From Nannocystales bacterium (GTDB taxonomy: Bacteria; Myxococcota_A; Polyangia; Nannocystales; Nannocystaceae): a DNA stretch of 64,000 bases. A model generated the notes under the pieces. It ran no database searches, had not been told where the DNA came from, and saw nothing but the letters and a program-made list of their open reading frames with translations. Shown here piece by piece: positions 39,154 to 53,755 of this stretch. The stretch is from the NCBI GenBank assembly GCA_050633305.1, contig JBOEGF010000010.1, forward strand, positions 288,001 to 352,000, given 5' to 3'. The first letter of the stretch is position 1; each line of letters opens with the position of its first letter. The position numbers and the translations under genes were made by a program.

Positions 39154-39540
39154 CTAGCCTTCCATCCGCTTCACCGGGCTGGTCGCGTCGAGTTCGACGC
39201 GCTCGTGCTCGGTGAGGACTTTGGAGCGCGTCAGGAACCGCATGCCCTCGGGCGACTCGAGGGAGAAGCCCGCACCGCGGCCGGCCACCGCATCGATGAC
39301 CAACCGGGTGTGCTTCCACAGCTCCCACTGCGCCGCTCCGATGTAGACCGAACAGCCCTCGATCTCACCCAGGAGGATGTCGCTGCGCCCGAGCTTGAAC
39401 TCCCCCGCGGGGTAGCACATGGGCGCGCTGCCATCGCAGCAGCCACCGGACTGATGAAACATCAGCGGCCCGTGCACGTCGCGAAGCCGCTTGATCAGGC
39501 TCGCCGCGACGTCCGTGACGCCCACCCGGGCAACCGCCAC
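39154..39540 (-). CDS. DUF779-family protein
   Basis: HGPLMFHQSGGCCDGSAPMCYP and GRGAGFSLESPEG motifs; the usual neighbour of aldB. Confidence 0.92.
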   Translation of the reverse strand: MAVARVGVTDVAASLIKRLRDVHGPLMFHQSGGCCDGSAPMCYPAGEFKLGRSDILLGEIEGCSVYIGAAQWELWKHTRLVIDAVAGRGAGFSLESPEGMRFLTRSKVLTEHERVELDATSPVKRMEG

Positions 39541-41060
39541 TAGAAGAACCCCATGGGCTTGGGATCGTAGCTCACCAGCAGGTTCTTGGTCTGCTGGTAG
39601 TGGTCCAGCATCATCTTGTGGTTCTCGCGACCGATGCCGGAGTGCTTGTACCCACCGAACGCAGCATGCGCTGGGTAGAGGTGGTAGCAGTTCGTCCAGA
39701 CACGACCGGCCTCAATCGCTCGACCTGCGCGAAACGCAGTCGCACCGCTGCGAGTCCACACGCCGGCACCGAGGCCGTAGAGCGTGTCGTTTGCGATGTT
39801 GATTGCGTCGTCGTAGTCCTCGAAGCTGGTGACGGAGACGACGGGTCCGAAGATCTCTTCCTGGAACACCCGCATCTTGTTGTTCCCTCGGAAGATGGTC
39901 GGCTGGACGTAGTAGCCACCCGCCAGGTCTCCTTCGAGCTCCGCCCGTGCTCCGCCCATCAGGACCTCAGCACCCTCTTGCTTGCCGATGTCGAGGTAGC
40001 TGAGGATCTTCTCGAACTGGTCGTTCGATGCCTGTGCGCCGATCGTCGTGGCGGGGTCGAGGGGGTTGCCCGGTGCGTGCGTCTTGGCTCGTTCGACGGC
40101 GAGCTCGAGGAACGAACCGTAGATCGACTTCTCCACCAGGGCTCGCGATGGGCAGGTGCAGACCTCGCCCTGGTTGAGCGCGAACATGCCGAAGCCTTCG
40201 AGGCATTTCTGCAAGAAGTCGTCGTTCTCCTGCATCACGTCCGCGAAGAAGAGGTTGGGGCTCTTGCCTCCGAGCTCGAGGGTGACGGGGATGATGTTCT
40301 CCGTCGCGTACTGCATGATCAGCCGCCCGGTGGTGGTCTCTCCGGTAAACGCGACCTTCGCGATGCGGTTGCTCTGCGCGAGGGGCTTTCCCGCTTCGAC
40401 ACCGAAGCCGTTGACGATGTTGAGGACGCCCGGCGGAAGCAGGTCTCCGCATAGCTCCGCGAAGAGCATCAGCGACACCGGGGTCTGCTCGGCCGGCTTG
40501 ATCACCACGGCGTTGCCCGCAGCCAGGGCGGGAGCGAGCTTCCATGCCGCCATGAGCAACGGGAAGTTCCAGGGGATGATCTGGCCGACGACACCCAGTG
40601 GCTCTTTCACGTGATAGGCAACCGTGTTGGCGTCCAGCTCGGCCATGGAGCCTTCTTGGGCGCGGATGCAGCCGGCGAAGTACCGGAAGTGATCGATGGC
40701 CAGGGGAAGGTCGGCGGCCAGCGTCTCGCGGACGGGCTTGCCGTTGTCCCAGCTTTCTGCGACCGCGAAGCGCTCCAAGTTCTGCTCGAGGCGCTCGGCG
40801 ATCTTCATCAGCACCGTCGAACGGTCTCCAGCGCTTGTTTTGCCCCACGCCGGAGCGGCTTTGTGTGCCGCATCCAGGGCTGTCTCGATGTCCTCTGCGG
40901 TGGAGCGCGCAACCTCGCAGAACACCTTGCCGGTCACCGGGGTCACATTCTCGAAGTAGTTTCCTTGGGCCGGTTCGACGAACTCGCCGCCGATGTAGTT
41001 GCCGTAGCGGCTCTTGAAAGTGACGAGGGATCCTTCGGTATTGGGGGCTTTGTAGACCAC
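39540..41060 (-). CDS. aldB: Aldehyde dehydrogenase (AldB/ExaC/AcoD type)
   Basis: [34 protein letters not shown] and EEIFGP motifs; 506 aa from GTG 41060. Confidence 0.93.
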
Positions 41061-41123
41061 GGTGTGTTCCTGGGTTCGAGGTGGGTTCGGGCACCCGCTG
41101 TGGGTGTCTCCACCTGGGCCTTG

Positions 41124-41140
41124 AGCAAGCTTGGTGCCAA
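41124..41140 (-). promoter_or_regulatory. Sigma54 -24/-12 promoter of aldB
   Basis: Minus strand reads TTGGCACCAAGCTTGCT (GG-N10-GC). Confidence 0.85.
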
Positions 41141-41192
41141 TCGTGCGGTTGGGCCGCTGCAACGCGTTCCGCGAGCATGTGTCGCGCCCGCC

Positions 41193-41233
41193 TGTCGCGC
41201 TCGCGACAGCGACACCTGTTGCGTTTCGCGACA
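41193..41233. promoter_or_regulatory. Tandem upstream activator sites for the AcoR-like activator
   Basis: Palindromes TGTCGCG-CT-CGCGACA and TGTTGCG-TTT-CGCGACA, about 55-95 bp upstream of the -24 element. Confidence 0.65.
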
Positions 41234-41297
41234 GTCGCGAACTATTCTGATCCCACGCGCGTGGAGTCTCGGGGCTCCGCGAGGCGCGTCGTATTGT

Positions 41298-43238
41298 ATG
41301 GAACTCGATCCCGAACGCGCTGCGTTGACGCTCGACATCGCAGGCGACGCTTCCGAGCAGGTCCACCGGGCCTGGAGTCGCGCGCGCGCGATGGGAGTCG
41401 ACCCGTCAGGCATCGGCCACGTCGAGAGTATCGACGTGGGAAGCGGGCTCGCGGTTCGTCAGCTGTCGATGCAGCACCTGGTGCGTTCCGGCCAATCGGT
41501 TCTGGATGACTTGGCTCGGGACTTGGCCCATCGGCATTTCGCATTGTTGCTCGCGGACTGCGACGGTGTGGTTCTGCATCGGATGGGCGGCGGCGAGTTT
41601 GAGGCCACGGCAGATCATGTCCGACTGATCGAAGGGGCTCATTGGGCGGAGTCCGTCCGAGGCACGAACGCGATCGGGACGGCGCTGGCCGAGAACGCGC
41701 CGGTCAGTGTTCTTGGCGGTGCCCACTACGCACAGCCCAACCAGGCCCTCGTTTGTTACGCCAGCCCGATTCGGGATCCTGGAGGCCAGACGGTCGCCGT
41801 GCTCGATGCTACGGGCGCAATGCCCAACGCCGACGCTTCGGTCAGCGCCGCGGTTCGGTCCGCCGCGACGGCGCTGGAGGATCGGCTGCGCTTGGAGCTT
41901 TGGCCGCAGCGGGGCCCCAACTCGCTGAGGGTCCTTCAGCAAACGCTGCAACGCTGCGCTGTTCCTGCATTTGTCGTCGAGCGTCCGGGGACCGTTCGGG
42001 CTTCCAACTCGTCGGCAGTGGCGCTGCTGGGTCGAGCGACCGCGGCGCGTCTCGACGCGTTGCTCGGCCTCTCCTGGTCCGACCTCGAGCGACTGATTCA
42101 GACCGGAGACCTGCCTCAGTGCGCAGCCGGGCGGCTCGCTCACGCGTTTCCCCATCAGCAACTGCACGTCGAGCCAGTTCTCGATCTGCACGGAGATGTC
42201 TGGGCGGCGGTCGTGTTCCTCGAGCCCCTGCCGGTCCTCCGGCGAATCCGGCCCGCCTCATCGACCACGCCGACGCTGCCTTCGGCGTTCGCACGTATCT
42301 GTGGCTCCGACCCCGGGCTGAAGGCGGTGCTGCAGCACGCGGCCTTGGTTGCCGAGACAACGTTGCCCATCCTGATCCGCGCCGAGACCGGCACCGGCAA
42401 GGAGCTGCTCGCCGCTGCTGTGCATCACGCCAGCGACCGCGCGGATGAGCCGATGGTGTCGCTCAACTGCGGTGCTGTGCAGCCAGAGCTCATGGCCAGT
42501 GAGCTGTTTGGCTATGCTCCGGGCGCGTACACAGGCGCGGATCCCAAAGGCCGAGAGGGCACCGTCGCGGCGGCAGCTGGGGGCACGTTGTTCCTCGACG
42601 AGCTCGCGGACATGCCCAAGGCGCTCCAGGTGTTGCTGCTGCGGTTTTTGGAGAGTGGCAGCTACCAACGGGTCGGCGAGTCAAAGCTGCGGCACGTCAA
42701 CGTCCGCCTCGTCTGTGCGACGTGCCGTGACCTCGACGCGCTTGTGGAGTCCGGCGAGTTTCGTCGCGACCTCTACTTCCGCATCAAGGGGGCGTGCCTT
42801 CGCCTTCCGCCGCTGCGGGCTCGTGACGACCTCGCGGAGCTCGCCAACGAGCTCCTCGACGAGCTGGCGGATGCCGAGTCGCTCGATCCCCGACCCCGCT
42901 TGTCCGAGCAGGCTCTGCTTCGGCTCCAGGGTCACGATTGGCCGGGGAACACTCGAGAGCTCAAGATGGTGCTTCATCACGCCCTTGCGCTGACTCGGGG
43001 ACGGACAGACATCGGTGCGGACGACATCCCGCTGCCTCAGGTCTCTTCGAGGCCGTCGGTCGTCCCGGGAGCCGAGCCGGGTTCGATGCACGACCACAAG
43101 CGTGCCGCGTTGGCTCAAGCGCTCTGCGATGCAAACGGAAACGTCTCCGCTGCGGCACGAGCCCTCGGTGTGGCTCGCAGTACCATCTATCGACAGCTAC
43201 AGCGCTACGGCTTGCTGAGCGGTGTCGACGGATCCTGA
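41298..43238 (+). CDS. acoR: AcoR-type sigma54-dependent activator (GAF-AAA-Fis HTH)
   Basis: [47 protein letters not shown] and HTH motifs. Start placed at ATG 41298. Confidence 0.88.
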
Positions 43239-43283: not shown

Positions 43284-44033
43284 TCAGCTCATCGAGGCGC
43301 CGCCGTCGACGTCGATGGTGCGACCGTTGAAGTAGTCGCATTCGAGCACGAAGCGAACCGCGCACCAGATGTCCTGCGGGGTGCCGATGCGGCCGACCGG
43401 GATTCCTGCAACGAGCGCGTCACGGGCCTTCTGGTTCATGCCCTGTGTCATGGGAGTTTCGACCATGCCTGGGGCCACCGCGCCCACGCGGACCCCCATC
43501 GGCGCAAATTCGCGGGCCCAAGTCACGGTGTTCGCGGCGAGAGCGGCCTTCGTCGCGACGTAGTTGCTCTGACCGCGGCTGCCGTGCCGGGAAATACTGG
43601 AGATATTCACGACCACGCCGCCGGCGACCTCGGTCTGCAAAGCGTTGAGGGCAAAGGCACGTGTCATGAACATGGCGCCGGTGAGGTTCACCGCGAGGAC
43701 CGAGTTCCACGCCTCGGTGCTCATGGTGGATAGCTCGCCGGTTCTTCGACTGCGCTTGGCAAGCAGACCATCACGGATGATGCCCGCGTTGTTGATCAGG
43801 CCGTTGACGCCACTCAGCTCGTCCTGCGCCCATTGAACAAACGCGTCGCAGTCGGCCTCGTCGGTCACGTCCAGCCTTCGCTTCGCGACATTGTCGGGAA
43901 GCGATGCGAGTCCCTCGGTATCGACGTCGCCCGCGGCGACCTGCGCTCCGGCTTCTGCGAGTTGGGTTGCAAAGTGGGCGCCCATGCCTCGGCCGGCTCC
44001 CGTGACGATGATCTTCAGTTGGTCCAGTTGCAT
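43284..44033 (-). CDS. SDR 3-oxoacyl reductase (FabG/PhaB-like)
   Basis: TGAGRGMG, NNAGIIRDGLL, NISS and YVATK motifs; located in the PHA locus. Confidence 0.85.
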   Translation of the reverse strand: MQLDQLKIIVTGAGRGMGAHFATQLAEAGAQVAAGDVDTEGLASLPDNVAKRRLDVTDEADCDAFVQWAQDELSGVNGLINNAGIIRDGLLAKRSRRTGELSTMSTEAWNSVLAVNLTGAMFMTRAFALNALQTEVAGGVVVNISSISRHGSRGQSNYVATKAALAANTVTWAREFAPMGVRVGAVAPGMVETPMTQGMNQKARDALVAGIPVGRIGTPQDIWCAVRFVLECDYFNGRTIDVDGGASMS

Positions 44034-44066
44034 CGGTGATCCTTCTTGTGCGTGTCGATGAAACGC

Positions 44067-44092
44067 GTGCGCCGCTCCGTCGAGCGGCGCAC
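44067..44092 (-). terminator. Perfect 11-bp hairpin after the phasin-like gene (leaky terminator or mRNA stabiliser)
   Basis: GTGCGCCGCTC-cgtc-GAGCGGCGCAC; only a weak U-tract follows. Confidence 0.6.
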
Positions 44093-44117
44093 TACGGGGG
44101 CGTCGCTCGTCCGAGCG

Positions 44118-44444
44118 CTAGCTGTTGCTGTTGGCAAACGCGCTCATCGTGCGGCGCGAGGCGGTCATGCCAAGGTTCATCCACTGCTGGCTGAGCTGGA
44201 TGCCGTAGTTCATCGATGCCTTGACGACCTCGGTCATCTCGTCGGCGGCCTCGCGGGTCCGACGAAGGTTGGCTTCCTGCGCCTTGGCGAGGTCGTCGAG
44301 GCCCTGCGTAACCAGGGCGCGTTGATCCTGCAGGGTCTCGGTCATAGGAGACCACATTTGTTGCGCCTGCGAAAAGAAATCCCGCACTGCGTCATTTGCA
44401 GCCGAGGTGGTAGACGCGCCAGAGGACGGCTTCTGAGCTTCCAT
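44118..44444 (-). CDS. Phasin-like amphipathic helical protein
   Basis: 108 aa, rich in A/Q/M/S, no Cys. Downstream of phaR, with a PhaR-type box in its promoter. Confidence 0.6.
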   Translation of the reverse strand: MEAQKPSSGASTTSAANDAVRDFFSQAQQMWSPMTETLQDQRALVTQGLDDLAKAQEANLRRTREAADEMTEVVKASMNYGIQLSQQWMNLGMTASRRTMSAFANSNS

Positions 44445-44451
44445 GAGCTGA

Positions 44452-44502
44452 GAAGTAGTCAGTCTAGGCTGGCCTGTCAATTCAATTTTGTGCGGTGCAC
44501 AA
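44452..44502 (-). promoter_or_regulatory. Promoter of the phasin-like gene with PhaR-type operator
   Basis: Palindrome TTGTGC-GGT-GCACAA (44488-44502) just upstream of a perfect TTGACA (44480-44475). The -10 is weak (TACTTC). Confidence 0.7.
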
Positions 44503-44504
44503 TT

Positions 44505-45065
44505 TTACGTGGCGTCGTCTCCACCCCGGACCGCTCGCTTCAGCTCCTCGAGTTCCGCCCGCAACGCTTGGAGGTCATCACTCACGCTGGGCGACTCCTG
44601 CTCAGTCGGCGGGGGGGGAGGTGCGGTCGGGGGCGAGGGGGTGGATGCTGGCGGAGCCTGTCCCGGCCAAAACGGTGCGCCCGCGAACATGCGGGCGAAA
44701 GGGCCACCTGCTCCCCAGGGCCCAGATCCGAAAGGGAGCATTGAACCGAGAGTTTGCCCCCCACTCTTCACGCTCAGGTAGACGTCTAGAGCCCAAGTGA
44801 CGTAGCTGGAGAAGAATTCGGCGATGGCGTCATCCTGCATCCGCAGCAGGCGGTGAAGAAGACCCACAGGCAAGAGCTTGGCGGTGGGACTCTCGAGAAT
44901 GAGCTGCGTCAGCGTCATCTGGGTAAGGTCATCACCCGATTTTGCGTCCACGACTCGGACCTCTTCCCCGTCGCGGATCTTGGTCGCGAGTTCGTCGAGC
45001 GTGATGTATCGGCTCAGCCCCGTGTCGTAGAGGCGCCGGTTGCTGTACTTCTTAATGATCGTCAC
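44505..45065 (-). CDS. phaR: PHA synthesis repressor PhaR (DNA-binding)
   Basis: IIKKYSNRRLYDT..SRYITLDEL...VRVVDAKSGDDLT..TLTQLILE. Start placed at GTG 45065. Confidence 0.88.
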   Translation of the reverse strand: MTIIKKYSNRRLYDTGLSRYITLDELATKIRDGEEVRVVDAKSGDDLTQMTLTQLILESPTAKLLPVGLLHRLLRMQDDAIAEFFSSYVTWALDVYLSVKSGGQTLGSMLPFGSGPWGAGGPFARMFAGAPFWPGQAPPASTPSPPTAPPPPPTEQESPSVSDDLQALRAELEELKRAVRGGDDAT

Positions 45066-45084
45066 GCCGAGGAACTCCGTGCTG

Positions 45085-45093
45085 TGCGCCGCA
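45085..45093. promoter_or_regulatory. PhaR-type box upstream of phaR (possible autoregulation)
   Basis: TGC-GCC-GCA, 20 nt upstream of the start codon. Confidence 0.5.
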
Positions 45094-45171
45094 ATATCCC
45101 ACTGGCGCTTCACAATGGTCAACTCTCGCTGCGTGCCTTGCGAAGTGGACTCAGTGCCATCCCAGTGGCAC

Positions 45172-45229
45172 TTGACGGCGCGGTGAACACCCCGATAGTC
45201 TCCGGCGGGCTAATGGTGCAGCGCAGCAT
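45172..45229 (+). promoter_or_regulatory. Promoter of the lipoprotein-to-phaC operon, with a PhaR-type box over the first codons
   Basis: TTGACG-N18-TAGTCT, then ATGGTGCAGCGCAGCAT containing TGC-AGC-GCA within an imperfect palindrome. Confidence 0.55.
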
Positions 45230-46187
45230 ATTCGGTTCGAGGCTGACGCTTCTTCTGGTCCTCTCGGGGTGTGGGGACGACGCGTCGGCGTGTGTCGTGG
45301 GTGCCGACTGCCCTTCGGGCCAGTGCAGCGCTCAGGGCGAGTGCGTGCCCGTCGCTGGCACATCGTCATCCGGCGAGCTGGGCTCATCGGGCGCAGAGAC
45401 TTCGACGGGGTCGAGCACCACCGCCGAGAGCGACGACGCCTCCGGGGGGGTGGACGAGAGCAGCACAACCTCCTCGGGTCCGGCGGATTGCATGCCGCCC
45501 AACGGAGATGGCGTCATCGAGCGGGGCGAGCTGCGGTTCGAGCCAGACCTGCAGGTCAACTACCGTGCGGCCCAGGCGGTCACGTTTGATACGGCTGGCT
45601 CGACGATCGACGGTGAAACCGTCTGGGACATGTCGGTCGAGTTTCCGGGGGACCACACGAGCAGTGGTGAGTTTCTGTCGGTCGAAGGGCAGTGGTTCGA
45701 GCCGTCATTCCCAGGGGCCACGTATGCGACGCGTTTGACGGATGCCGATGACTTGCTCGGGGTGTTTGAGGCCACGGACAGCGCGTTGACCCTACGCGGG
45801 GTGGTCTCGCCGGTCGGCGGCGCTCAGCGGACCGAGCTCGTCTACGACCCTCCGGTGACGGTCCTGAGCTTTCCGCTGGTGCAGGGCAAGGCTTGGGAGT
45901 CGGACGCCAACGTCACGGGGGTCGCGCTGGGCATTCCGACGGGCTACACAGAGAACTACCAGAATCGGATCGACGCGTCGGGCACGTTGCGGACACCCTT
46001 CGGCGACTACGAGGTCTTGCGTGTGGGCGTCGTGCTGACGCGGACCTTTGGCATCGTCCCCACCGTCGTACGGACCTTCGCGTTTGTCAGTGAGTGCGTC
46101 GGAACGGTGGGCAGCGTGCGTTCCAATGACAACGAGGACTCGCCCGAGTTCACACAGGTGGCGGAAGTCCGGAGGATCGACCCTTGA
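45213..46187 (+). CDS. Lipoprotein A of the PHA operon (Cys knot, S/T linker, beta-rich domain)
   Basis: Lipobox LSGC; EF-hand-like NGDGVIERGE; paralog of 48753-49589. Confidence 0.75.
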   Translation: MVQRSIFGSRLTLLLVLSGCGDDASACVVGADCPSGQCSAQGECVPVAGTSSSGELGSSGAETSTGSSTTAESDDASGGVDESSTTSSGPADCMPPNGDGVIERGELRFEPDLQVNYRAAQAVTFDTAGSTIDGETVWDMSVEFPGDHTSSGEFLSVEGQWFEPSFPGATYATRLTDADDLLGVFEATDSALTLRGVVSPVGGAQRTELVYDPPVTVLSFPLVQGKAWESDANVTGVALGIPTGYTENYQNRIDASGTLRTPFGDYEVLRVGVVLTRTFGIVPTVVRTFAFVSECVGTVGSVRSNDNEDSPEFTQVAEVRRIDP

Positions 46188-47167
46188 AACGACTCGCAGC
46201 CGCGGCGGCGGGAATGCTGTTGGGTGGCTGCCTCCATTTTCATGATGGTCCGCTGCCGAACGAGCCGGCGGATGCTCGTTTCGCCGATGTGCAGGACGCT
46301 CGTGTACGGTTTGTCGACGAAGGCCAGGGGCCTGCAGTCGTCTTGATCCACGGATTCGCGAGTTCGCTGGAGAACTGGGACCCCGTGCTCGAGGACCTCC
46401 TCGAGGGACACCGGGTCCTCGCGCTGGATCTCAAGGGGTTCGGCTGGACGGACCGGCCCGAGGGGGACTACTCGCCCTCGGCCCAAGCCGCGCTGGTGTT
46501 TGCACTCATGGATCAACGGGGCATCGAGCGAGCCGCCGTCGTGGGCCACTCTTGGGGGTCTTCGGTCGTGTTGGCGATGGCGCTCGATCAACCCGAGCGT
46601 GTCGAGCGTATCGCGCTGTACGACGCGTGGGTGTTCGAGGAGCAGCTGCCTCCGATGTTCGTCTGGGCCCGGGCGAAGGGCCTCGGGGAGCTGCTGTTCC
46701 GGTTGTTCTACTTGGAACGACCCGACGACAAGGTTGAGCTGGCCTATCACGACCGCTCGGTCGTCTCGCAGGATCACGTCGAGGCGATCGAGCAGGCCCA
46801 AGCCCGACCCGGCACCACCGCCGCCGCACTCGCAGCGGTACGCGGTCAGCGGTACGCGGAGGTGCAGCGGCACTACCACGAGATCGAGCAGCCGGTGCTC
46901 CTCCTGTGGGGCCGCGAGGACAGGATCACACTGCTCGAGGACGGCGAACGCTTGGCCGGGACGCTGCCCAACGCCGAGCTCCGAGTGTATCCCAACTGCG
47001 GGCACTTCCCGATGCGTGAGGCCGAGCCGGCGTCCACGCGCGCGCTCGTCGACTTCCTCGCACCGGCTAGAACCAAGATGCCGGAACCAGAGGTGACTGC
47101 GGAGCCGGAATCCACACCACCACAGGCCGAGCTCCAGCCTGCCGAGGTTGCGGGAGTTGTGCCATGA
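46184..47167 (+). CDS. Lipoprotein alpha/beta hydrolase (esterase/depolymerase candidate)
   Basis: Lipobox LGGC; LIHGF, GHSWG nucleophile elbow, WGREDR and GHFP motifs. Confidence 0.85.
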   Translation: MKRLAAAAAGMLLGGCLHFHDGPLPNEPADARFADVQDARVRFVDEGQGPAVVLIHGFASSLENWDPVLEDLLEGHRVLALDLKGFGWTDRPEGDYSPSAQAALVFALMDQRGIERAAVVGHSWGSSVVLAMALDQPERVERIALYDAWVFEEQLPPMFVWARAKGLGELLFRLFYLERPDDKVELAYHDRSVVSQDHVEAIEQAQARPGTTAAALAAVRGQRYAEVQRHYHEIEQPVLLLWGREDRITLLEDGERLAGTLPNAELRVYPNCGHFPMREAEPASTRALVDFLAPARTKMPEPEVTAEPESTPPQAELQPAEVAGVVP

Positions 47168-48750
47168 CGCCTGTCGTCTCCGCACTCCTCTCGACGTTGG
47201 CGCTGGCGCCCGCGCCCGAGGCGGACGAGCCGACCACCCAGGGGCTTGGGAACTACGGTGTCTCGCTTGGCCAACGCCGAGCCAAGGTGTGGGAGATCGG
47301 CGGCTATGCCCGGATGCGCGGCGAGCTGCAGCACAACTACGACCTCGATCACGGGCCCACGCCCGGCGGCCAGCTGCTCTATCCACTGCCGCTGGGCAAC
47401 CCGAGGCGCCAACTCCTGACCCGGGCGGATATGCGTTTGCGAACGGACCTTTCCGCCCACGCGCCTCGTGGTTGGGTCTCGATGAACGTTCGCTTGGATG
47501 TTCTCGACAACTTCGCGCTGGGCTCTTCTCCCGCGGGCGTGCCTGCGGCCACGGCGACCCAGGTGTCCGGGGCGGAGGTCATCCGGGTGAAACGAGTGTT
47601 CGCGCAGGTGCTCACGCCGCTGGGCGTCATCGCGGTCGGTCGGATGGGGAACCACTGGGGCCTGGGTATGCTGGCCAACAGCGGGGACTGCTCGGGTTGC
47701 GACAGCAGCGATGCATCCGATCGCATCGCGTGGGCACTGCCTGCGTTCAAGCATGTGTTTGCGTTGGCCTACGACATCTCTGCGTCTGGCCCCTTCGTCT
47801 CCGACGCCGCCGGCACCCGTGCCATTGGAGTCGCGCCCCGGGCAGCGGTGCACTCGGTCACAGGAGCGCTCCTGCGGAGTCGCTCTCCCAACTCACTCGC
47901 GCGCCGTCGGGCCGGCGGGCGGTTGACCTTCGAGTACGGCGCCTATGGGTCTTATCGGTGGCAGAACTTGGACGTTCCGAGCACCTACCTTCCGCTGGCC
48001 AGCGCTGCGCCCGAACTCGATCGCGGCCAACTGATGATCCGCGGGTACCAGGCCGCGGCGGCCGACGGATGGCTTCGATTGACAGGCAAGTGGTTTCGGG
48101 TCGAGACCGAAGGTGCGTTCCTGTGGGCAAACGTCGAGCAGCCGTCGCTGATCCCAGGCGTGTCTCTTCCACGCCCCGCGACGTCGAGGCAGGGCGGGGT
48201 TGCGCTGGAGAATGAAGTCGGGGAAGTCAATGGGCGGTGGAGCGTGGGGCTCGATCTCGGGTTCGCCAGCGGCGATCGTGCACCAGGGTTCGGGGCGTAT
48301 CCGGCCGTCAACGGAGCCGCGCCCGTGCCTGGGGATCTCGACGGCGCACAGGCGACGCCTCCGTACGACAACGCGGTGAACAACTTTCGGTTCCACTCCG
48401 ACTACCGTGTCGATCGCATCCTCTTTCGCGAGATCATCGGCACGGTCACAGACGCAACGTACGTGCGTCCACATGCCCGGTACACGGCGTGGCGGGGGCC
48501 AACAGGGCAACTCGACATCAACCTCGCGGGCGTGTTCTCAGCCGCGGTCGAGCCAACATCGACACCGGGCCAACAGCGACCTCTCGGTGTGGAGCTCGAC
48601 CCCTCCATCGTCTTTCGCACCAACTTCGCGCTCGAGGCAGCATTCGAGCCGGCGCTCCTCATACCCCTGTCTGGCCTCGACAACGTCGCGGCTGGCTACG
48701 CCGCCAAGCCTGCGCAGCTGTACCGCGCCCGCTTGCAGTTCAACTTCTAA
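47164..48750 (+). CDS. Outer-membrane beta-barrel (TIGR04551-like myxobacterial family)
   Basis: Signal peptide; GRMGNHWGLGMLANSGDC..CD and NFRFHSDYRVDRILFREIIGTVTDA.Y.RP motifs; C-terminal LQFNF. Confidence 0.75.
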   Translation: MTPVVSALLSTLALAPAPEADEPTTQGLGNYGVSLGQRRAKVWEIGGYARMRGELQHNYDLDHGPTPGGQLLYPLPLGNPRRQLLTRADMRLRTDLSAHAPRGWVSMNVRLDVLDNFALGSSPAGVPAATATQVSGAEVIRVKRVFAQVLTPLGVIAVGRMGNHWGLGMLANSGDCSGCDSSDASDRIAWALPAFKHVFALAYDISASGPFVSDAAGTRAIGVAPRAAVHSVTGALLRSRSPNSLARRRAGGRLTFEYGAYGSYRWQNLDVPSTYLPLASAAPELDRGQLMIRGYQAAAADGWLRLTGKWFRVETEGAFLWANVEQPSLIPGVSLPRPATSRQGGVALENEVGEVNGRWSVGLDLGFASGDRAPGFGAYPAVNGAAPVPGDLDGAQATPPYDNAVNNFRFHSDYRVDRILFREIIGTVTDATYVRPHARYTAWRGPTGQLDINLAGVFSAAVEPTSTPGQQRPLGVELDPSIVFRTNFALEAAFEPALLIPLSGLDNVAAGYAAKPAQLYRARLQFNF

Positions 48751-48752
48751 CG

Positions 48753-49589
48753 ATGTCTGTCTTTCGCTCTGTGTTGCTCGCTGGCCTCGCCCTCGCAGGA
48801 TGTGATGGCAATGGTGCGCTTCCGCCGGACCGTCCGCTCTACGAAGGTGAGGATGAAGTCCCGCTGGACTGCATTCCCAACCTCGATGGTGTGATCGACG
48901 CCCACGAGCTGCCGCTGGTGCTCGGCGCTGAGGTCACGTACCTCGTGTCTCCTCCCGGAGAGCTTCGAACCGTCGATATCGAAGGAGCAGGGGAGAGCAC
49001 GACGCGGGGTTGGGACTGGTCGGTCGACCTGGCCGACGATCAACTCGCGCGCATCTCCGCCTTCTCCACCGAGGAGCGCTGGTACGCCGACCGTTTTCCC
49101 CCCGATGCTTTCGTGGCCCCCTTTGACGACGGCGGAAGTACGGAGACCATCTCGCGTCGGGACGACGACGGACTCTACGTCCTTGGGATTGCCTCGCGTG
49201 AGTCGGACCCACCGACCGGCCGAACACTGCTGATCTACGACGAGCCGATCCCGTTGATCCGGTTTCCCGTCGAGACGGGCACGAAATACTCGTCCTCTGC
49301 GAACGTGCAGGATGCGGTCTTTCACGGGATCCCGTACGCCGCCCGGGACACGTACGAGGTTGAGGTCTCGGCGGTGGGCGAGCTGCGGCTGCCCACCCTT
49401 TCGTTCTCTCAGGCCCACCAAGTTCGGATTCAGCTCACCGTAGAGCCTGCGCTGGGGGAGACCACCTCGGTTCGACAAGTCAGCTACTTCTTCGAATGCT
49501 TCGGAGAGGTCGCACGCGCCACCAGCCAGCTGGACGAGCCTGACCCCAACTTCACCGAGGCCGCCGAAGTGCGACGCCTTGGCTACTGA
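48753..49589 (+). CDS. Lipoprotein B of the PHA operon (paralog of A)
   Basis: Lipobox LAGC; CIPNLDGVIDAHE; C-terminal ECFGEV...FTEAAEVRRL matches ECVGTV...FTQVAEVRRI of lipoprotein A. Confidence 0.75.
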   Translation: MSVFRSVLLAGLALAGCDGNGALPPDRPLYEGEDEVPLDCIPNLDGVIDAHELPLVLGAEVTYLVSPPGELRTVDIEGAGESTTRGWDWSVDLADDQLARISAFSTEERWYADRFPPDAFVAPFDDGGSTETISRRDDDGLYVLGIASRESDPPTGRTLLIYDEPIPLIRFPVETGTKYSSSANVQDAVFHGIPYAARDTYEVEVSAVGELRLPTLSFSQAHQVRIQLTVEPALGETTSVRQVSYFFECFGEVARATSQLDEPDPNFTEAAEVRRLGY

Positions 49590-49610
49590 ACGCCGCCCAC
49601 GGAGCCCACC

Positions 49611-49910
49611 ATGAACCTCTGGAAAACCTGGAAGACCGCCTTCGACGGTTGGGAAAACAACACTGCACAGTTGCTGGACCCCATCGTCCGAAGTGCGCGG
49701 GTGTTGGAGCCCGTCGGCTCTGCGTTGAGCGCCACCATGAAGCTCAAGGCGATGACCGATCGAGTCGCGGCAGCGTGGTGGGGGGCGATCGGTTTGCCCA
49801 CGCGGCGAGATCAGGAGCGTGCGTTGCACAAGCTCAACACGCTGGAGAGCCGTATCCTCGACCTCGAGGAGCAGCTCGAGGACGCGGGTTCCGCTCGGGA
49901 GGGGAAGTGA
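49611..49910 (+). CDS. Miniature PhaE-like PHA synthase partner subunit
   Basis: GLPTRRDQERALHKLNTLESRILDLEEQL resembles the PhaE C-terminal LPTRxE coiled coil; 99 aa. Confidence 0.65.
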   Translation: MNLWKTWKTAFDGWENNTAQLLDPIVRSARVLEPVGSALSATMKLKAMTDRVAAAWWGAIGLPTRRDQERALHKLNTLESRILDLEEQLEDAGSAREGK

Positions 49911-51640
49911 TGGACGTCGCGGCATACTTGGAACTCAAGCCTGCACCCGCGATCCTGCTCGAGCGGGCGGAGACCCGCGGGGCGCAGCCTCGGTACATGC
50001 TGCCCACCGACGATGGTGGCTGGAAACCGCGGACGTGGGCCGAGCACGCGACGGCGGTTCGCGACGTCGCCGCGGCACTGGTCGAGCGTGGGTTGCATGG
50101 CACGGAGCGTGTGGCGATCTTTGCCGGGAACAGCACCGCATGGATCGAGTCCGCGCTTGGAGCCCAGGCGGCTGGTCTTGTCGTGGTCCCGATCTACCCG
50201 GCATCGACGGCGGAGCAGGCCAGCTACGTGCTCGAACACAGCGACGCGCGCGCCTTGTTCGTCGGAGGGGAGTCGCTCGTTCGCCGTGCGCTGAGAGCTT
50301 GGGAAAGCCTGGATGCTGTCGGTACGGTTGTGGTCCTCGATGACACATCCGTCACCGAGGTGCTCGATGGGATGCGAGATGAGGGAGATCGGGTCCCGTC
50401 GTCGGATTGGGTGCAGCGGAGGTTCGTCCATGTCAGCCAGCTTCGCGAGCAGGGCCGAGCAGCCCGCGTCGCCCATCCCACCCTCGTCGAGGAGCGCTTG
50501 GCGGACATCCGCATGGAAGACCCGGCGCTGATGCTCTACACCAGCGGTACGACGGGTCGCCCCAAGGGCGTGCCGCTCTCGCATCAGAACATCGGGGTCA
50601 ATGCCCGGGACTGGGTCGTCAACAACGGGCCCGCGCTTCCTGAAGATGGAGTGGATGTGCTGTGGCTCCCCATGAGCCACATCTTCGGGTTCGGTGAGGC
50701 GTGTCTGGGGAACAACCTCGGTTTCACGTCCTACCTCTGCAACCCCAAGCAGGTGATGGATGTTCTCCCGACGGTCCGGCCGAATGTCTTCATGAGCGTG
50801 CCCGCCTACTGGGAGAAACTCGCTGGTTCGTCTATCGGGATCGAGGACGACGCGGCGGCCAAACAGGCGTTGAGCGAGGCCACGGGCGGTCGCCTTCGCT
50901 TCTGTCTTTCTGGGGGCGCCGGTCTCAGCATTCCCGTCAAGGAGCACTACAAGCGCTGCGGAGTGCTCATCATCGAGGGCTACGGGCTCACGGAGTGCTC
51001 ACCAACCCTCACGCTCAACCGTCCCGCCGACTATCGTTTCGACTCGGTGGGGAAGCCGCTGCCTTCCGTTGAACTCGAACTCGCCCCCGATGGAGAGATC
51101 TTGGCCCGGGGCCCGAGCGTGTTTGGTGGCTACCACAAGGACCCGGGCGCGACGGCGGCCGCATTCGACGACAACGGCTGGTTCAAGACCGGTGACATTG
51201 GACGTTGGACGGAAGACGGCTTCTTACAGATCGTCGACCGCAAGAAGGAAATCCTGGTCACGGCAGGTGGAAAAAACGTGCCTCCTGCCAACATCGAGCG
51301 CTTGTTCGCGAGCGATCCGCTCTTCGCCCATGTGGTCGTCTATGGCGATGGCCGGAAGTACCTCGTTGCAGGTGTGTGGCTCGACACCGAAGTGCTCGCC
51401 GAACGTCTCGCCGCGATGGCAGCGGCGCCCGACGACGCCGCAGCTCGAGAATCGCTGGTGCAGGCCGCAGTGGACGCGGCCAACGCGAAACTGGCCCGCT
51501 TCGAACAGATCAAGCGCTTCCGAGTCATGGAGCGCCCGCTGAGCGTCGAGGAGGGGCTGCTCACCAGCACCCTCAAGATCCGTCGCAAGCACATCTACAA
51601 GGCGTTCTCCGGCGCCTTTGAGGGGCTCTACGCGTCATGA
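49910..51640 (+). CDS. Long-chain fatty acid-CoA ligase (FadD15-like)
   Basis: YTSGTTGRPKG, EGYGLTE, WFKTGDIG, DRKKEILVTAGGKNV and LTSTLK motifs. TGATG overlap with the upstream gene. Confidence 0.9.
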   Translation: MDVAAYLELKPAPAILLERAETRGAQPRYMLPTDDGGWKPRTWAEHATAVRDVAAALVERGLHGTERVAIFAGNSTAWIESALGAQAAGLVVVPIYPASTAEQASYVLEHSDARALFVGGESLVRRALRAWESLDAVGTVVVLDDTSVTEVLDGMRDEGDRVPSSDWVQRRFVHVSQLREQGRAARVAHPTLVEERLADIRMEDPALMLYTSGTTGRPKGVPLSHQNIGVNARDWVVNNGPALPEDGVDVLWLPMSHIFGFGEACLGNNLGFTSYLCNPKQVMDVLPTVRPNVFMSVPAYWEKLAGSSIGIEDDAAAKQALSEATGGRLRFCLSGGAGLSIPVKEHYKRCGVLIIEGYGLTECSPTLTLNRPADYRFDSVGKPLPSVELELAPDGEILARGPSVFGGYHKDPGATAAAFDDNGWFKTGDIGRWTEDGFLQIVDRKKEILVTAGGKNVPPANIERLFASDPLFAHVVVYGDGRKYLVAGVWLDTEVLAERLAAMAAAPDDAAARESLVQAAVDAANAKLARFEQIKRFRVMERPLSVEEGLLTSTLKIRRKHIYKAFSGAFEGLYAS

Positions 51641-52695
51641 TGAAGGGCGTCTTCAACTTGGCGCGGCGGGCCAAACACGGGCTGCCCGACGTCGGTCAAA
51701 CTCCAGCGGATGTCGTGCACGCGGAGAACAAGTGGTCGTTGCTTCGCTACCGCCCTGGGCCCGACGGGCTCGCGCCCGGCCGCCCCATCGTGTTGGTACC
51801 CTCGCTCATCAATCGGCACTACGTGCTCGACTTGATGCCCTCGAAGAGCTTTGTCGAGTTCCTCGTCGATCAAGGCCGGGACGTCTACATCATCGACTGG
51901 GGGACGCCGACCGCCGAGGACCGGTTCGTCACCTTCGACGACATCGCAGACCGAATCCTGCACCGCGCGTTTCGTGTTGCGGCGAAACTCTCCGGGAGCC
52001 CCGATGTCCACGTGTTGGGGTACTGCCTCGGGGGCACCCTCACTGCGATTCACGCTGCGGTCCGGCCGGCGCGCGTCGCCACCCTCACCGTGTTGGCTGC
52101 CCCCGTCGATTTCCACGACGACGGCCCGTTGTCGCAGTGGACCAACACGAAGAGCTTCGATCTCGATGCGCTGGTGTCCGCGACCGGGCTCGTGCCGTGG
52201 CCGCTCATGCAGGCAGCCTTCTACTTGCTTCGGCCGACGATGATCCTGTCCAAGGGAGTCACGCTTGCTGATCGGGCATGGAACGACGAATTTCTCGACG
52301 GGTTCCTGGCGATTGAGCGATGGGGGAACGACAACGTTTCGTTTCCAGGCGAGTGCTACAAGCGCTACATCGGTCGGCTCTACCGGGACAACGCGCTGAT
52401 CCGTGATGCGTTCTCACTCAGCGGCGAGCGTGTTTCGTTGTCCAACATCATGTGCCCCGTCCATGCCGTCACGTTCGGCCACGACAACATCGTCCCCTGG
52501 CGGAGCGCTGCCAAACTCGTGGACGTTGTGGGGACGCAGGACAAGAAGCACTTGCACCTTCCCGGGGGCCATGTGGGGGCCGTGGTATCCAAGAAGGCCC
52601 GGCACAAGCTGTGGCCCGAGCTACTGGGGTGGTGGGAGGAGAGAGACGGTGGCCCCGCAGTGCGCTCGGTCTCGGTTGACGCCGCTGGGAGCTGA
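51637..52695 (+). CDS. phaC: Class III-type PHA synthase catalytic subunit
   Basis: VGQTP, SLINRHYVLDL, DWGTP, lipase box GYCLGG, HDNIVP (Asp) and GGHVG (His); 352 aa. Confidence 0.85.
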   Translation: MMKGVFNLARRAKHGLPDVGQTPADVVHAENKWSLLRYRPGPDGLAPGRPIVLVPSLINRHYVLDLMPSKSFVEFLVDQGRDVYIIDWGTPTAEDRFVTFDDIADRILHRAFRVAAKLSGSPDVHVLGYCLGGTLTAIHAAVRPARVATLTVLAAPVDFHDDGPLSQWTNTKSFDLDALVSATGLVPWPLMQAAFYLLRPTMILSKGVTLADRAWNDEFLDGFLAIERWGNDNVSFPGECYKRYIGRLYRDNALIRDAFSLSGERVSLSNIMCPVHAVTFGHDNIVPWRSAAKLVDVVGTQDKKHLHLPGGHVGAVVSKKARHKLWPELLGWWEERDGGPAVRSVSVDAAGS

Positions 52696-52720: not shown

Positions 52721-53755
52721 ATGCGGCACAGTGCGTTCGGCATCTCGGTAGCGTTGGGCATGCTCCTCGCGTGCGACGGCGGAGACAAGCAGGCTCCAGC
52801 GAAGCCGACGGTGAAACCCGCCAAGGCTGTGGAGTCCAAAGCGGGGAGCCACGAGGAGCCCACGGCCGCAGCCGAGCCGGTGGTCAAGGTCATCCGGCCA
52901 CAGGACGAGCAGCCGAACGCCGCGGATGCACCCCCTTCAGAAAAACTCGCGGACTTGGTCGCAGCGGAACCCGGTCAAGCCTACGGCCAGGTCCTCGTGC
53001 AAGCCCGCTCCGAAGAAAACCACATCGCGGAGCTGACGGTCGTCCGGGCCGAAGGTGTCAAAGCCCGGAGCGGCTCGGTGCGCTATACGGCCGAGCCACG
53101 TGTGGTCGTGGCGAAGGCCAAGACGATCGTGCACGAGGCGAACCTTCTGGGCACCGGGATCTCGATCGACATCGATGGTGACGGAAAGACGAACGCCAAG
53201 ATCCCGACGAAATGCGACGGTGGTGCGGCCGTCCTCGAAACCCAACCTCCACTTCGCCTCGAACCTGTGACGGAGCTATCGGATGCGGTCGCACGCTTTG
53301 ACTATGGCAAAGCCGATGCCCATGTTCTTGCAAACGAGGGGGCCGGCGCACTGCTGTACGCCCCGTGCGACAAGCAGACCCTCATCCTCGGCCTCGATCC
53401 GTCAGGCCCGCTGAAGATGCATGAGGTCCCCAGTCCCGCGGCATTCGTCGTGTACCGGGTGGCGGTTGAGTCTGCCGAGACCGAGGACCCCTTCACGTTG
53501 CAGAAGGTCAACAGCGGCGAAACGGAGGTTGAACACGACCTGTACTCGTTCCGAGAGGTCTCGGTCGAAGCGGACGAGGTCAAGGTCTACGCAGCCCATC
53601 TCGTCGTGTTCGCGCTCGACCCCGAACCCGCGCTGCAGCATGTGACGCTGGAGATCGCCGGGGAGAAGCCAGAGTTCATCACCGCTTCGGTCAACGAAGT
53701 CGACGGCGATGGCCAGCGTATTCGGTACGCCGACGGCTTCAAGCCGTTCCGCTGA
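52721..53755 (+). CDS. Lipoprotein, hypothetical
   Basis: Lipobox LLAC; DIDGDG loop. Confidence 0.7.
   Translation: MRHSAFGISVALGMLLACDGGDKQAPAKPTVKPAKAVESKAGSHEEPTAAAEPVVKVIRPQDEQPNAADAPPSEKLADLVAAEPGQAYGQVLVQARSEENHIAELTVVRAEGVKARSGSVRYTAEPRVVVAKAKTIVHEANLLGTGISIDIDGDGKTNAKIPTKCDGGAAVLETQPPLRLEPVTELSDAVARFDYGKADAHVLANEGAGALLYAPCDKQTLILGLDPSGPLKMHEVPSPAAFVVYRVAVESAETEDPFTLQKVNSGETEVEHDLYSFREVSVEADEVKVYAAHLVVFALDPEPALQHVTLEIAGEKPEFITASVNEVDGDGQRIRYADGFKPFR

Follow-up and report, generated by a model that had tools for sequence, protein, structure and literature searches.

The locus described here raises the question of why genes for a polyhydroxyalkanoate (PHA) synthase stand in one row with genes for exported lipoproteins and an outer-membrane barrel. 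The analysed window is a 64,000 nt stretch of a Nannocystales bacterium (assembly GCA_050633305.1, contig JBOEGF010000010.1, positions 288,001-352,000, forward strand; source genome of 11.0 Mb, 92% complete), and the locus lies at window positions 43284-52695. Within it, seven tightly joined genes were found in the open reading frame (ORF) listing and junction check to run in one direction (45213-52695, plus strand) in the order lipoprotein A, lipoprotein hydrolase, barrel, lipoprotein B, mini-PhaE, acyl-CoA ligase and PhaC. The first four encode exported proteins and are referred to as the cassette, or cassette 1. The reading that we favour, with a probability of roughly 0.45, is that the row is a PhaR-controlled salvage line for outside polyester, by which PHA oligomers would be imported and re-polymerised.

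The first-pass annotation, which had proposed such a role from the window alone, regarded envelope genes unlinked to phaC in relatives as evidence against it. To examine the linkage, the barrel was searched for in 401 genomes of the phylum Myxococcota and matches were obtained in 320, with E<=1e-57 in 97 of 400 genomes (source genome excluded). Up to 20 kb was fetched around 79 of these 97 barrels, 18 being left out mostly because of short contigs, and the 79 cassette loci span 24 families. A PhaC-family gene was present within about 10 kb of the barrel in 76/79 loci, in several gene orders, and the linkage thus held in relatives; given that related genomes are not independent, this and the following figures are counts and not a statistical test. 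The hydrolase and lipoprotein B were each found in 78/79 loci, lipoprotein A in 76, a ligase (of the window type or a second type) in 69, phaR in 63, phaE in 58 and a FabG-like gene in 29. The seven-gene order was kept in 39/79 loci and the order hydrolase-barrel-lipoprotein B in 77/79, so that the juxtaposition is more than chance; the other orders include some in which the synthase precedes the cassette, follows it or points away from it. According to the PhaC tree, cassette 1 accompanies PhaC proteins of several distant lineages and ligases of two types. As controls, the main TIGR04551 barrel paralogue was within 10 kb of a listed phaC in 0/23 genomes with both positions listed, in a listing that lacked 218 phaC matches, and PHA genes were found in 0/6 loci fetched around weaker barrel matches.

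The cassette has a counterpart. PhaC was found in 213 of the 401 genomes, and 35 phaC loci were fetched from genomes with weak barrel matches. Two of these carried a broken or diverged cassette 1, 14 carried a different lipoprotein and/or barrel (cassette 2), usually together with a lipoprotein hydrolase, and 15 a secreted esterase of either the class-2-lipase-like or the depolymerase type. Because 17/35 had neither a cassette nor a secreted esterase, the cassette is an accessory to phaC. Cassette 2 is made up of a lipoprotein (C), barrel 2 and a lipoprotein esterase. No homology of barrel 2 to barrel 1 or of lipoprotein C to lipoprotein B was detectable (hhalign 3.5% and 6%), and family models gave no match to barrel 2 or lipoprotein C except low-complexity hits; barrel 2 is probably a barrel, judging from its sequence pattern. 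In the source genome's own family PhaC was present in 36/72 genomes, and the 20 further loci fetched there contained cassette 1 in 2 cases, cassette 2 in 6, a secreted esterase in 12 and none of these in 3. Eight own-family cassette 2 loci sit behind orthologous phaE-ligase-phaC genes, and in a quick tree of 123 PhaC rows these eight nest inside a clade otherwise bearing cassette 1 (SH-aLRT 87; 97 with one cassette 1 row). One cassette has thus replaced the other behind the same synthase, and this replacement argues that the function is needed there. In the source genome itself, contig C18 (G000:C18:650135-653965, L168) carries a degenerate barrel 2 remnant, an intact lipoprotein hydrolase and an esterase of the polyhydroxybutyrate (PHB) depolymerase family. 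What is new here is the cassette and its interchangeable counterpart; the synthase side is of a known kind.

The features of the locus are as follows (window coordinates).

43284..44033, minus strand: FabG/PhaB-like short-chain reductase of the PRK08217 type (adh_short_C2; NF006072 254 bits, under the cut-off of 298)
44118..44444, minus strand: phasin-like small protein with a putative phasin role, without family match
44491..44499, no strand: predicted PhaR-like box TGC-N3-GCA upstream of the phasin-like gene (pattern match)
44505..45065, minus strand: PhaR repressor (PF07879, 92 bits)
45085..45093, no strand: predicted PhaR-like box in the phaR/lipoprotein A divergent region (pattern match)
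45217..45225, no strand: second predicted PhaR-like box, overlapping the start of the lipoprotein A coding region (pattern match)
45213..46187, plus strand: lipoprotein A, 324 aa, lipobox Cys20, paralogue of lipoprotein B
46184..47167, plus strand: lipoprotein serine hydrolase, Cys16, Ser123-Asp246-His274 (Abhydrolase_1, GHSWG)
47164..48750, plus strand: predicted 18-stranded outer-membrane barrel of a PHA-linked TIGR04551 subfamily (TIGR04551 and structure model)
48753..49589, plus strand: lipoprotein B, 278 aa, Cys17, predicted YmcC/GfcB-like beta fold (structure model)
49611..49910, plus strand: mini-PhaE, 99 aa, only the C-terminal part of PhaE (PF09712)
49910..51640, plus strand: acyl-CoA ligase of the long-chain FadD type, AMP-binding, adenylation motifs intact
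51637..52695, plus strand: class III-like PHA synthase PhaC, GYCLGG box, Cys130, Asp283, His312 (TIGR01836 the best class), without signal peptide

The seven genes are joined by four overlaps (TTGA at 46184, ATGA at 47164, TGATG ending at 49910-49912 and ATGA at 51637), one 2-nt gap between barrel and lipoprotein B (48751-48752) and one 21-nt gap between lipoprotein B (end 49589) and mini-phaE (start 49611). The gene order and junctions agree with those reported by the first-pass annotation, as does the position of phaR, the phasin-like gene and the FabG-like gene on the opposite strand, divergent from the row. The PHA and envelope parts, which had been called fused, are neighbouring genes and no protein fusion is present. 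Following phaC by 25 nt is an eighth co-oriented lipoprotein gene (52721-53755) of no known family, with a homologue in only 4/93 loci, all close kin. On the other side the locus is adjoined (39154-43238) by an aldehyde dehydrogenase, a small downstream ORF and a divergent sigma-54 activator, which are not conserved with it. Among relatives, MBOAT acyltransferase and GDSL-family genes adjoin the locus in L091, L092 and L094, all of one family.

The synthase side contains the expected parts. PhaC has the motifs GYCLGG at 128, HDNIV at 282 and GGHVG at 310, i.e. a Cys lipase box with Asp and His; its matches in the PDB are only PHA synthases, its best class is class III (TIGR01836, 258.7 bits, under the curated cut-off of 365.3) and no signal peptide or membrane helix was predicted in it. 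Mini-PhaE scores 25.4 bits against PF09712 (cut-off 25.7; model positions 230-304 of 311) and 28.6 bits against TIGR01834 (cut-off 154.95). One PhaC, one PhaR and one copy of the cassette were found in the source genome. Many relatives carry another PhaC-family gene, about 42% identical, upstream of phaR (e.g. L035:3708-4679), which this genome lacks. The ligase, with its adenylation motifs intact, has FadD11 (long-chain) as best NCBIfam match. A single fused PhaC-ligase protein of the PRK07868 type was considered for distant PhaC and ligase genes and ruled out, as these are separate ORFs. The FabG-like reductase likely supplies (R)-3-hydroxyacyl-CoA. It had been pointed out that no phaA is present in the window; there is indeed no thiolase within it, but since the rest of the genome contains eight thiolase matches of nearly full length, this lack is no evidence and carries little weight.

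On the envelope side, Cys16, the oxyanion HG motif and Ser123-Asp246-His274 of the hydrolase do not vary among the 42 rows aligned, out of 85 homologues found, and by triad and oxyanion motif it would be an active-type serine alpha/beta hydrolase. Among solved structures its closest relatives are of several kinds (meta-cleavage hydrolases, esterases and one PHB depolymerase). Lipoproteins A and B are paralogues with 31% identity over 245 aa; neither had a Pfam or NCBIfam match, and a lipobox-like signal was seen in 44/50 scored lipoprotein A homologues. The model of lipoprotein B (predicted local distance difference score, pLDDT, 92.9) has a weak to moderate fold likeness to the YmcC type: the best structural match is 4fvs (Z 9.9), GfcB/YmcC (2in5) follows with Z 7.7 and a root-mean-square deviation (rmsd) of 4.4 over 149 residues, and YmcC/GfcB-like lipoproteins were matched in Foldseek with E 2e-3 to 6e-2. 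At residues ~40-52 (window 48870-48905) lipoprotein B contains a conserved Cys-Pro-Asn-x-Asp-Gly stretch with a weak EF-hand match (E 0.3-0.5), possibly a calcium site. In L088 (6364-8256) a single protein has two lipoprotein A/B domains, and three or more such domains occur in some loci.

The barrel scores 301.4 bits against TIGR04551 (cut-off 300); the other TIGR04551 member of the source genome scores 390 bits and is 27% identical to it. The nearest named homologue of the window barrel (93%) comes from an uncultured Nannocystaceae metagenome-assembled genome. The structure model has 18 strands (pLDDT 90.6). In a wide fold search MOMP (Z 23.8), OccD2 (22.7) and AlgE (22.6) fell within 1.2 Z units, with Z 22-24 and rmsd 3.6-4.5 over 322-352 residues for 18-stranded channels as against Z 10.1 and rmsd 7.9 for a FadL homologue. 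FadL is a 14-stranded barrel with a hatch, and the barrel as a FadL was ruled out from the 18 modelled strands and the Z of 10.1. No match to PF13372 (Alginate_exp) or any other Pfam family was obtained at E 0.1, and nothing significant was found in the PDB when it was searched by sequence with the barrel and lipoprotein profiles; PF13372 is carried by 10% of the members of one cluster of barrel look-alikes. Given that AlgE, OccD2 and MOMP are near-equal in the fold search, the modelled 18-stranded AlgE/Occ fold leaves the direction of transport unfixed. In two genomes of one genus (L107:3082-6066 and L108:7858-10689) hydrolase and barrel lie in one open frame; an internal signal-like stretch precedes the barrel part, and this was not counted as strong evidence.

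These likenesses bear on the alternative, already raised in the first-pass annotation, that a short polyester or an acylated PhaEC product leaves the cell through the AlgE-like barrel and GfcB-like lipoproteins, with the hydrolase trimming or releasing it. The exporter AlgE is the top Foldseek match of the barrel (E 2e-16), and GfcB, which lipoprotein B resembles, binds the barrel GfcD in capsule export (PMC8592465). However, the wide fold search does not separate AlgE from import channels, and clustering of the ORFs of 85 loci revealed no recurring inner-membrane exporter or periplasmic scaffold family. PhaR and the phasin indicate intracellular granules, and the transporter that does recur belongs to an import family. 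Passages of a review (PMC7147478) name one PHA-releasing mutant, with an unknown route, and give no known mechanism for natural PHA secretion. We consider export improbable. Import is favoured over it because a symporter recurs, esterases are surface-anchored and PhaR and phasin genes of granule type are present.

The symporter in question is one sodium:solute symporter subfamily present in 23 PHA loci, with either cassette type or neither. The source genome has a single copy of it on contig C7, preceded by genes for a KAS III-like protein and a cytoplasmic hydrolase; all three stand behind two PhaR-like boxes (G000:C7:49262-52706, L169). In the sister genus the C7-type KAS III, hydrolase and symporter genes belong to the PHA locus, and the KAS III-like gene could stand in for PhaA.

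A secreted class-2-lipase-like esterase with a MYXO-CTERM-like tail occurs in 7/79 loci and is common to both cassette types; the tail was over one cut-off in one of three esterases scanned. MYXO-CTERM proteins are described as surface-anchored in PMC11980579. The identification of this esterase as PhaZ7 was not upheld (26/450 bits). The esterase on contig C18 likewise has a MYXO-CTERM-like tail and scores 155.7 against TIGR01840 (cut-off 107.85) and 142.6 against e_dPHAscl_type1 (cut-off 150). An esterase of this PHB-depolymerase-family type follows cassette 2 in four own-family loci (the locus edge cuts the gene) and lies near phaC in two more. A second exported esterase of the PHB depolymerase family (PF10503), with a lipobox, is encoded on contig C40 (L170:4711-6042), and a PhaZ1-like gene (PHB_depo_C, DUF3141) stands beside the secreted esterase in several loci (e.g. 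L098:17012-18052).

Lipids rather than polyester could be what is imported: prey phospholipids or acylglycerols would be cut, the fatty acids would enter and be activated by the long-chain ligase, and beta-oxidation with FabG or MaoC would feed PhaEC. This would fit the FadD type of the ligase, the closeness of the secreted esterase to true lipases, the FabG genes of 29 loci and the MaoC-like hydratase in 3 loci, and a beta-oxidation route to PHA is proposed for Bradymonabacteria by the authors of PMC7460792. The source genome, however, already has three FadL-family genes, the barrel resembles 18-stranded channels far better than FadL, and the own-family cassette 2 is linked to PHB-depolymerase-type esterases. 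Lipid import is in our view unlikely, though the strongest of the alternatives.

Another alternative is turnover of the cell's own PHA, in which oligomers released from granules would be degraded to completion or taken up again in the periplasm, with the ligase closing the cycle. A PHB_depo_C-type intracellular depolymerase was not found in the 92% complete genome, the Bacillus PHB depolymerase 8ynv is among the top PDB matches of the hydrolase profile, and Pseudomonas putida recycles monomers (PMC4834554). On the other hand, an outer-membrane barrel and surface-anchored esterases would be needless, contig C7 offers a cytoplasmic hydrolase with PhaR-like boxes, and the PhaZ1-like gene is found beside the cassette in several relatives. 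This explanation is given a slightly lower rank than export.

Regulation was examined through the predicted boxes. TGC-N3-GCA, which resembles the PhaR boxes of Bradyrhizobium including those of phaP1 (PMC10888616), was present upstream of 49/52 phasin-like genes, 80/113 phaR and 50/101 lipoprotein A genes, whereas random windows had it in 10.7% of cases and the inner genes of cassette 1 in 9-17%. A promoter region shared with phaR, phasin or phaE accounts for 39/49 of the lipoprotein A boxes. Lipoprotein C, which is not beside phaR, had a box in 6/8 own-family loci; boxes of lipoprotein C outside the family were not counted, being GC-rich and probably inside the ligase coding region. The phaR/lipoprotein A divergent region contains two sigma-70-like sites, one per strand (2 found vs 0.8 expected). 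Together the patterns suggest that PhaR likely controls the cassette. Shared regulation could also be the whole connection, with a cassette for general carbon uptake joined to the pha genes through PhaR and no metabolic hand-over. Consistent with this are the many phaC loci without a cassette and the few loci in which the cassette sits with a thiolase, or with an MFS (major facilitator superfamily) transporter and an HpaB-family gene. Against it, overlapping stop and start codons tie the cassette to the synthase genes, and the linkage outlasts both rearrangement and cassette replacement. We rank this explanation last, as improbable, and the complete order is PHA-oligomer import, lipid import, export, own-PHA turnover and shared regulation.

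In the favoured reading of PHA-oligomer import, surface-anchored esterases, encoded elsewhere in this genome and in the locus in relatives, would break PHA from lysed cells into oligomers. These would enter through the barrel with its two lipoproteins and be trimmed to monomers by the lipoprotein hydrolase at the outer membrane, and the sodium:solute symporter, here on another contig, would take the monomers over the inner membrane. The ligase would then form the CoA ester, which could reach PhaEC directly, or via beta-oxidation and the FabG-like reductase, and end in storage granules. The salvage role proposed by the first-pass annotation thus gains from the 76/79 linkage and from a second cassette of the same make-up behind phaC, and the tie of the barrel with Occ carboxylate import channels supports import; the AlgE and GfcB likenesses, which come from polymer-export systems, detract from it.

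Several further observations weigh against PHA import. On the transport side, the window contains no inner-membrane transporter, the symporter is present in only 14/79 cassette loci, the first Foldseek match of the barrel is an exporter and the lipoprotein fold is like that of a capsule-export lipoprotein, and the conserved charged residues in the barrel strands are evenly 14 acidic and 14 basic. On the enzyme side, the hydrolase is under the depolymerase cut-offs (i_nPHAscl 78.6/300, TIGR02240 46.8/250.6), the secreted class-2 esterase resembles Bacillus LipA (E 3e-11) more closely than PhaZ7 (E 0.03), and the long-chain-type ligase looks better suited to fatty acids than to 3-hydroxybutyrate. 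The 17 phaC loci with neither cassette nor secreted esterase count in the same direction, as do stand-alone lipoprotein A genes, with a box in only 5/14 vs a 15% background, and the three of 79 cassette loci without a scoring PhaC. Two of these three (L045 and L047) have a thiolase and a weakly PhaC-like gene of no Pfam family after the cassette, and in the third (L105) phaC is elsewhere in the genome. One of the 76 linked PhaC-family genes, that of L081, has Ser in the lipase box; there (L081:12674-18993) cassette 1 lies behind a TetR gene, this PhaC-like gene, an MFS transporter, a ligase and an HpaB-family gene, an arrangement that possibly represents a catabolic use of the cassette.

Extended to the phylum, a proposal that we hold a little more tentatively is that Myxococcota have "polyester utilisation loci", in which a surface-to-granule line for PHA of prey or dead cells, with a new channel-lipoprotein complex under PhaR control, would have arisen two or more times, each time from other families of barrels and lipoproteins, these being interchangeable behind the same synthase. 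In Bradymonas sediminis, intracellular PHA builds up during predation (PMC7460792), and the gene-count rows in the supplement of that paper give two phaC in strain YN101 but no phaC in Myxococcus xanthus. No description of the cassette and no literature on TIGR04551 was found in a search that most subscription journals lay outside, and the locus is apparently undescribed.

The locus offers candidate parts (channel, lipoproteins, esterase, permease and ligase) for the passage of PHA products across the outer membrane, and it bears on whether the polyester of prey becomes a reserve of the predator. The barrel subfamily was found in nearly a quarter of the sampled genomes of a phylum that abounds in sludge and soil, so the route could play a part in bioplastic turnover, and the enzymes could serve PHA recycling; if export were true, the barrel would be a natural polyester secretion channel. 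The question is testable, as a hydrolase homologue (67% identical) is carried by the cultured Persicimonas caeni (P0140).

Among known systems, the closest on the synthase side are class III loci (phaEC with phaR and phasin; TIGR01836/TIGR01834), which share with this locus a PhaC of ~350 aa with Cys lipase box, Asp and His, a putative PhaE domain, PhaR and a phasin-like gene. Here, however, PhaC is under the class cut-off (258.7/365.3), PhaE has been cut down to 99 aa, the same row also encodes a ligase and four exported proteins, and phaA is missing from the locus. The PHA cycle of Pseudomonas, in which an acyl-CoA synthetase acts between PhaZ and PhaC, resembles the proposed line in its sequence of hydrolysis, CoA activation and re-polymerisation of monomers, but its hydrolase is intracellular, whereas the one here is a predicted lipoprotein beside an outer-membrane barrel. 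The recycling of monomers is described in PMC4834554, which also reports that Bdellovibrio, a predator with the extracellular-like depolymerases PhaZBd and Bd2637, hydrolyses the PHA of its prey; the sections of that paper drawn on describe no uptake cassette or re-polymerisation, and the gene-count rows of the PMC7460792 supplement list no phaC for B. bacteriovorus HD100.

For the envelope part, AlgE and the OprD/Occ carboxylate channels have in common with the barrel the predicted 18-stranded fold, but identity is 8-13% and no alginate genes recur in the loci. The group 4 capsule proteins GfcB (YmcC) and GfcD likewise combine a lipoprotein of similar predicted fold with a neighbouring barrel gene; identity is 4-6%, and here there are two lipoprotein paralogues, another barrel type and no recurring capsule genes. 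The polysaccharide utilisation loci of Bacteroidota consist of a surface hydrolase, a channel with lipoprotein partners, a periplasmic hydrolase, a permease and a regulator. Unlike these, the present locus has no SusC/SusD homology and no TonB-dependent plug, and its chemistry would be that of esters and not of glycans and linked to storage, but its layout is similar, and it is by analogy only that the two are compared.

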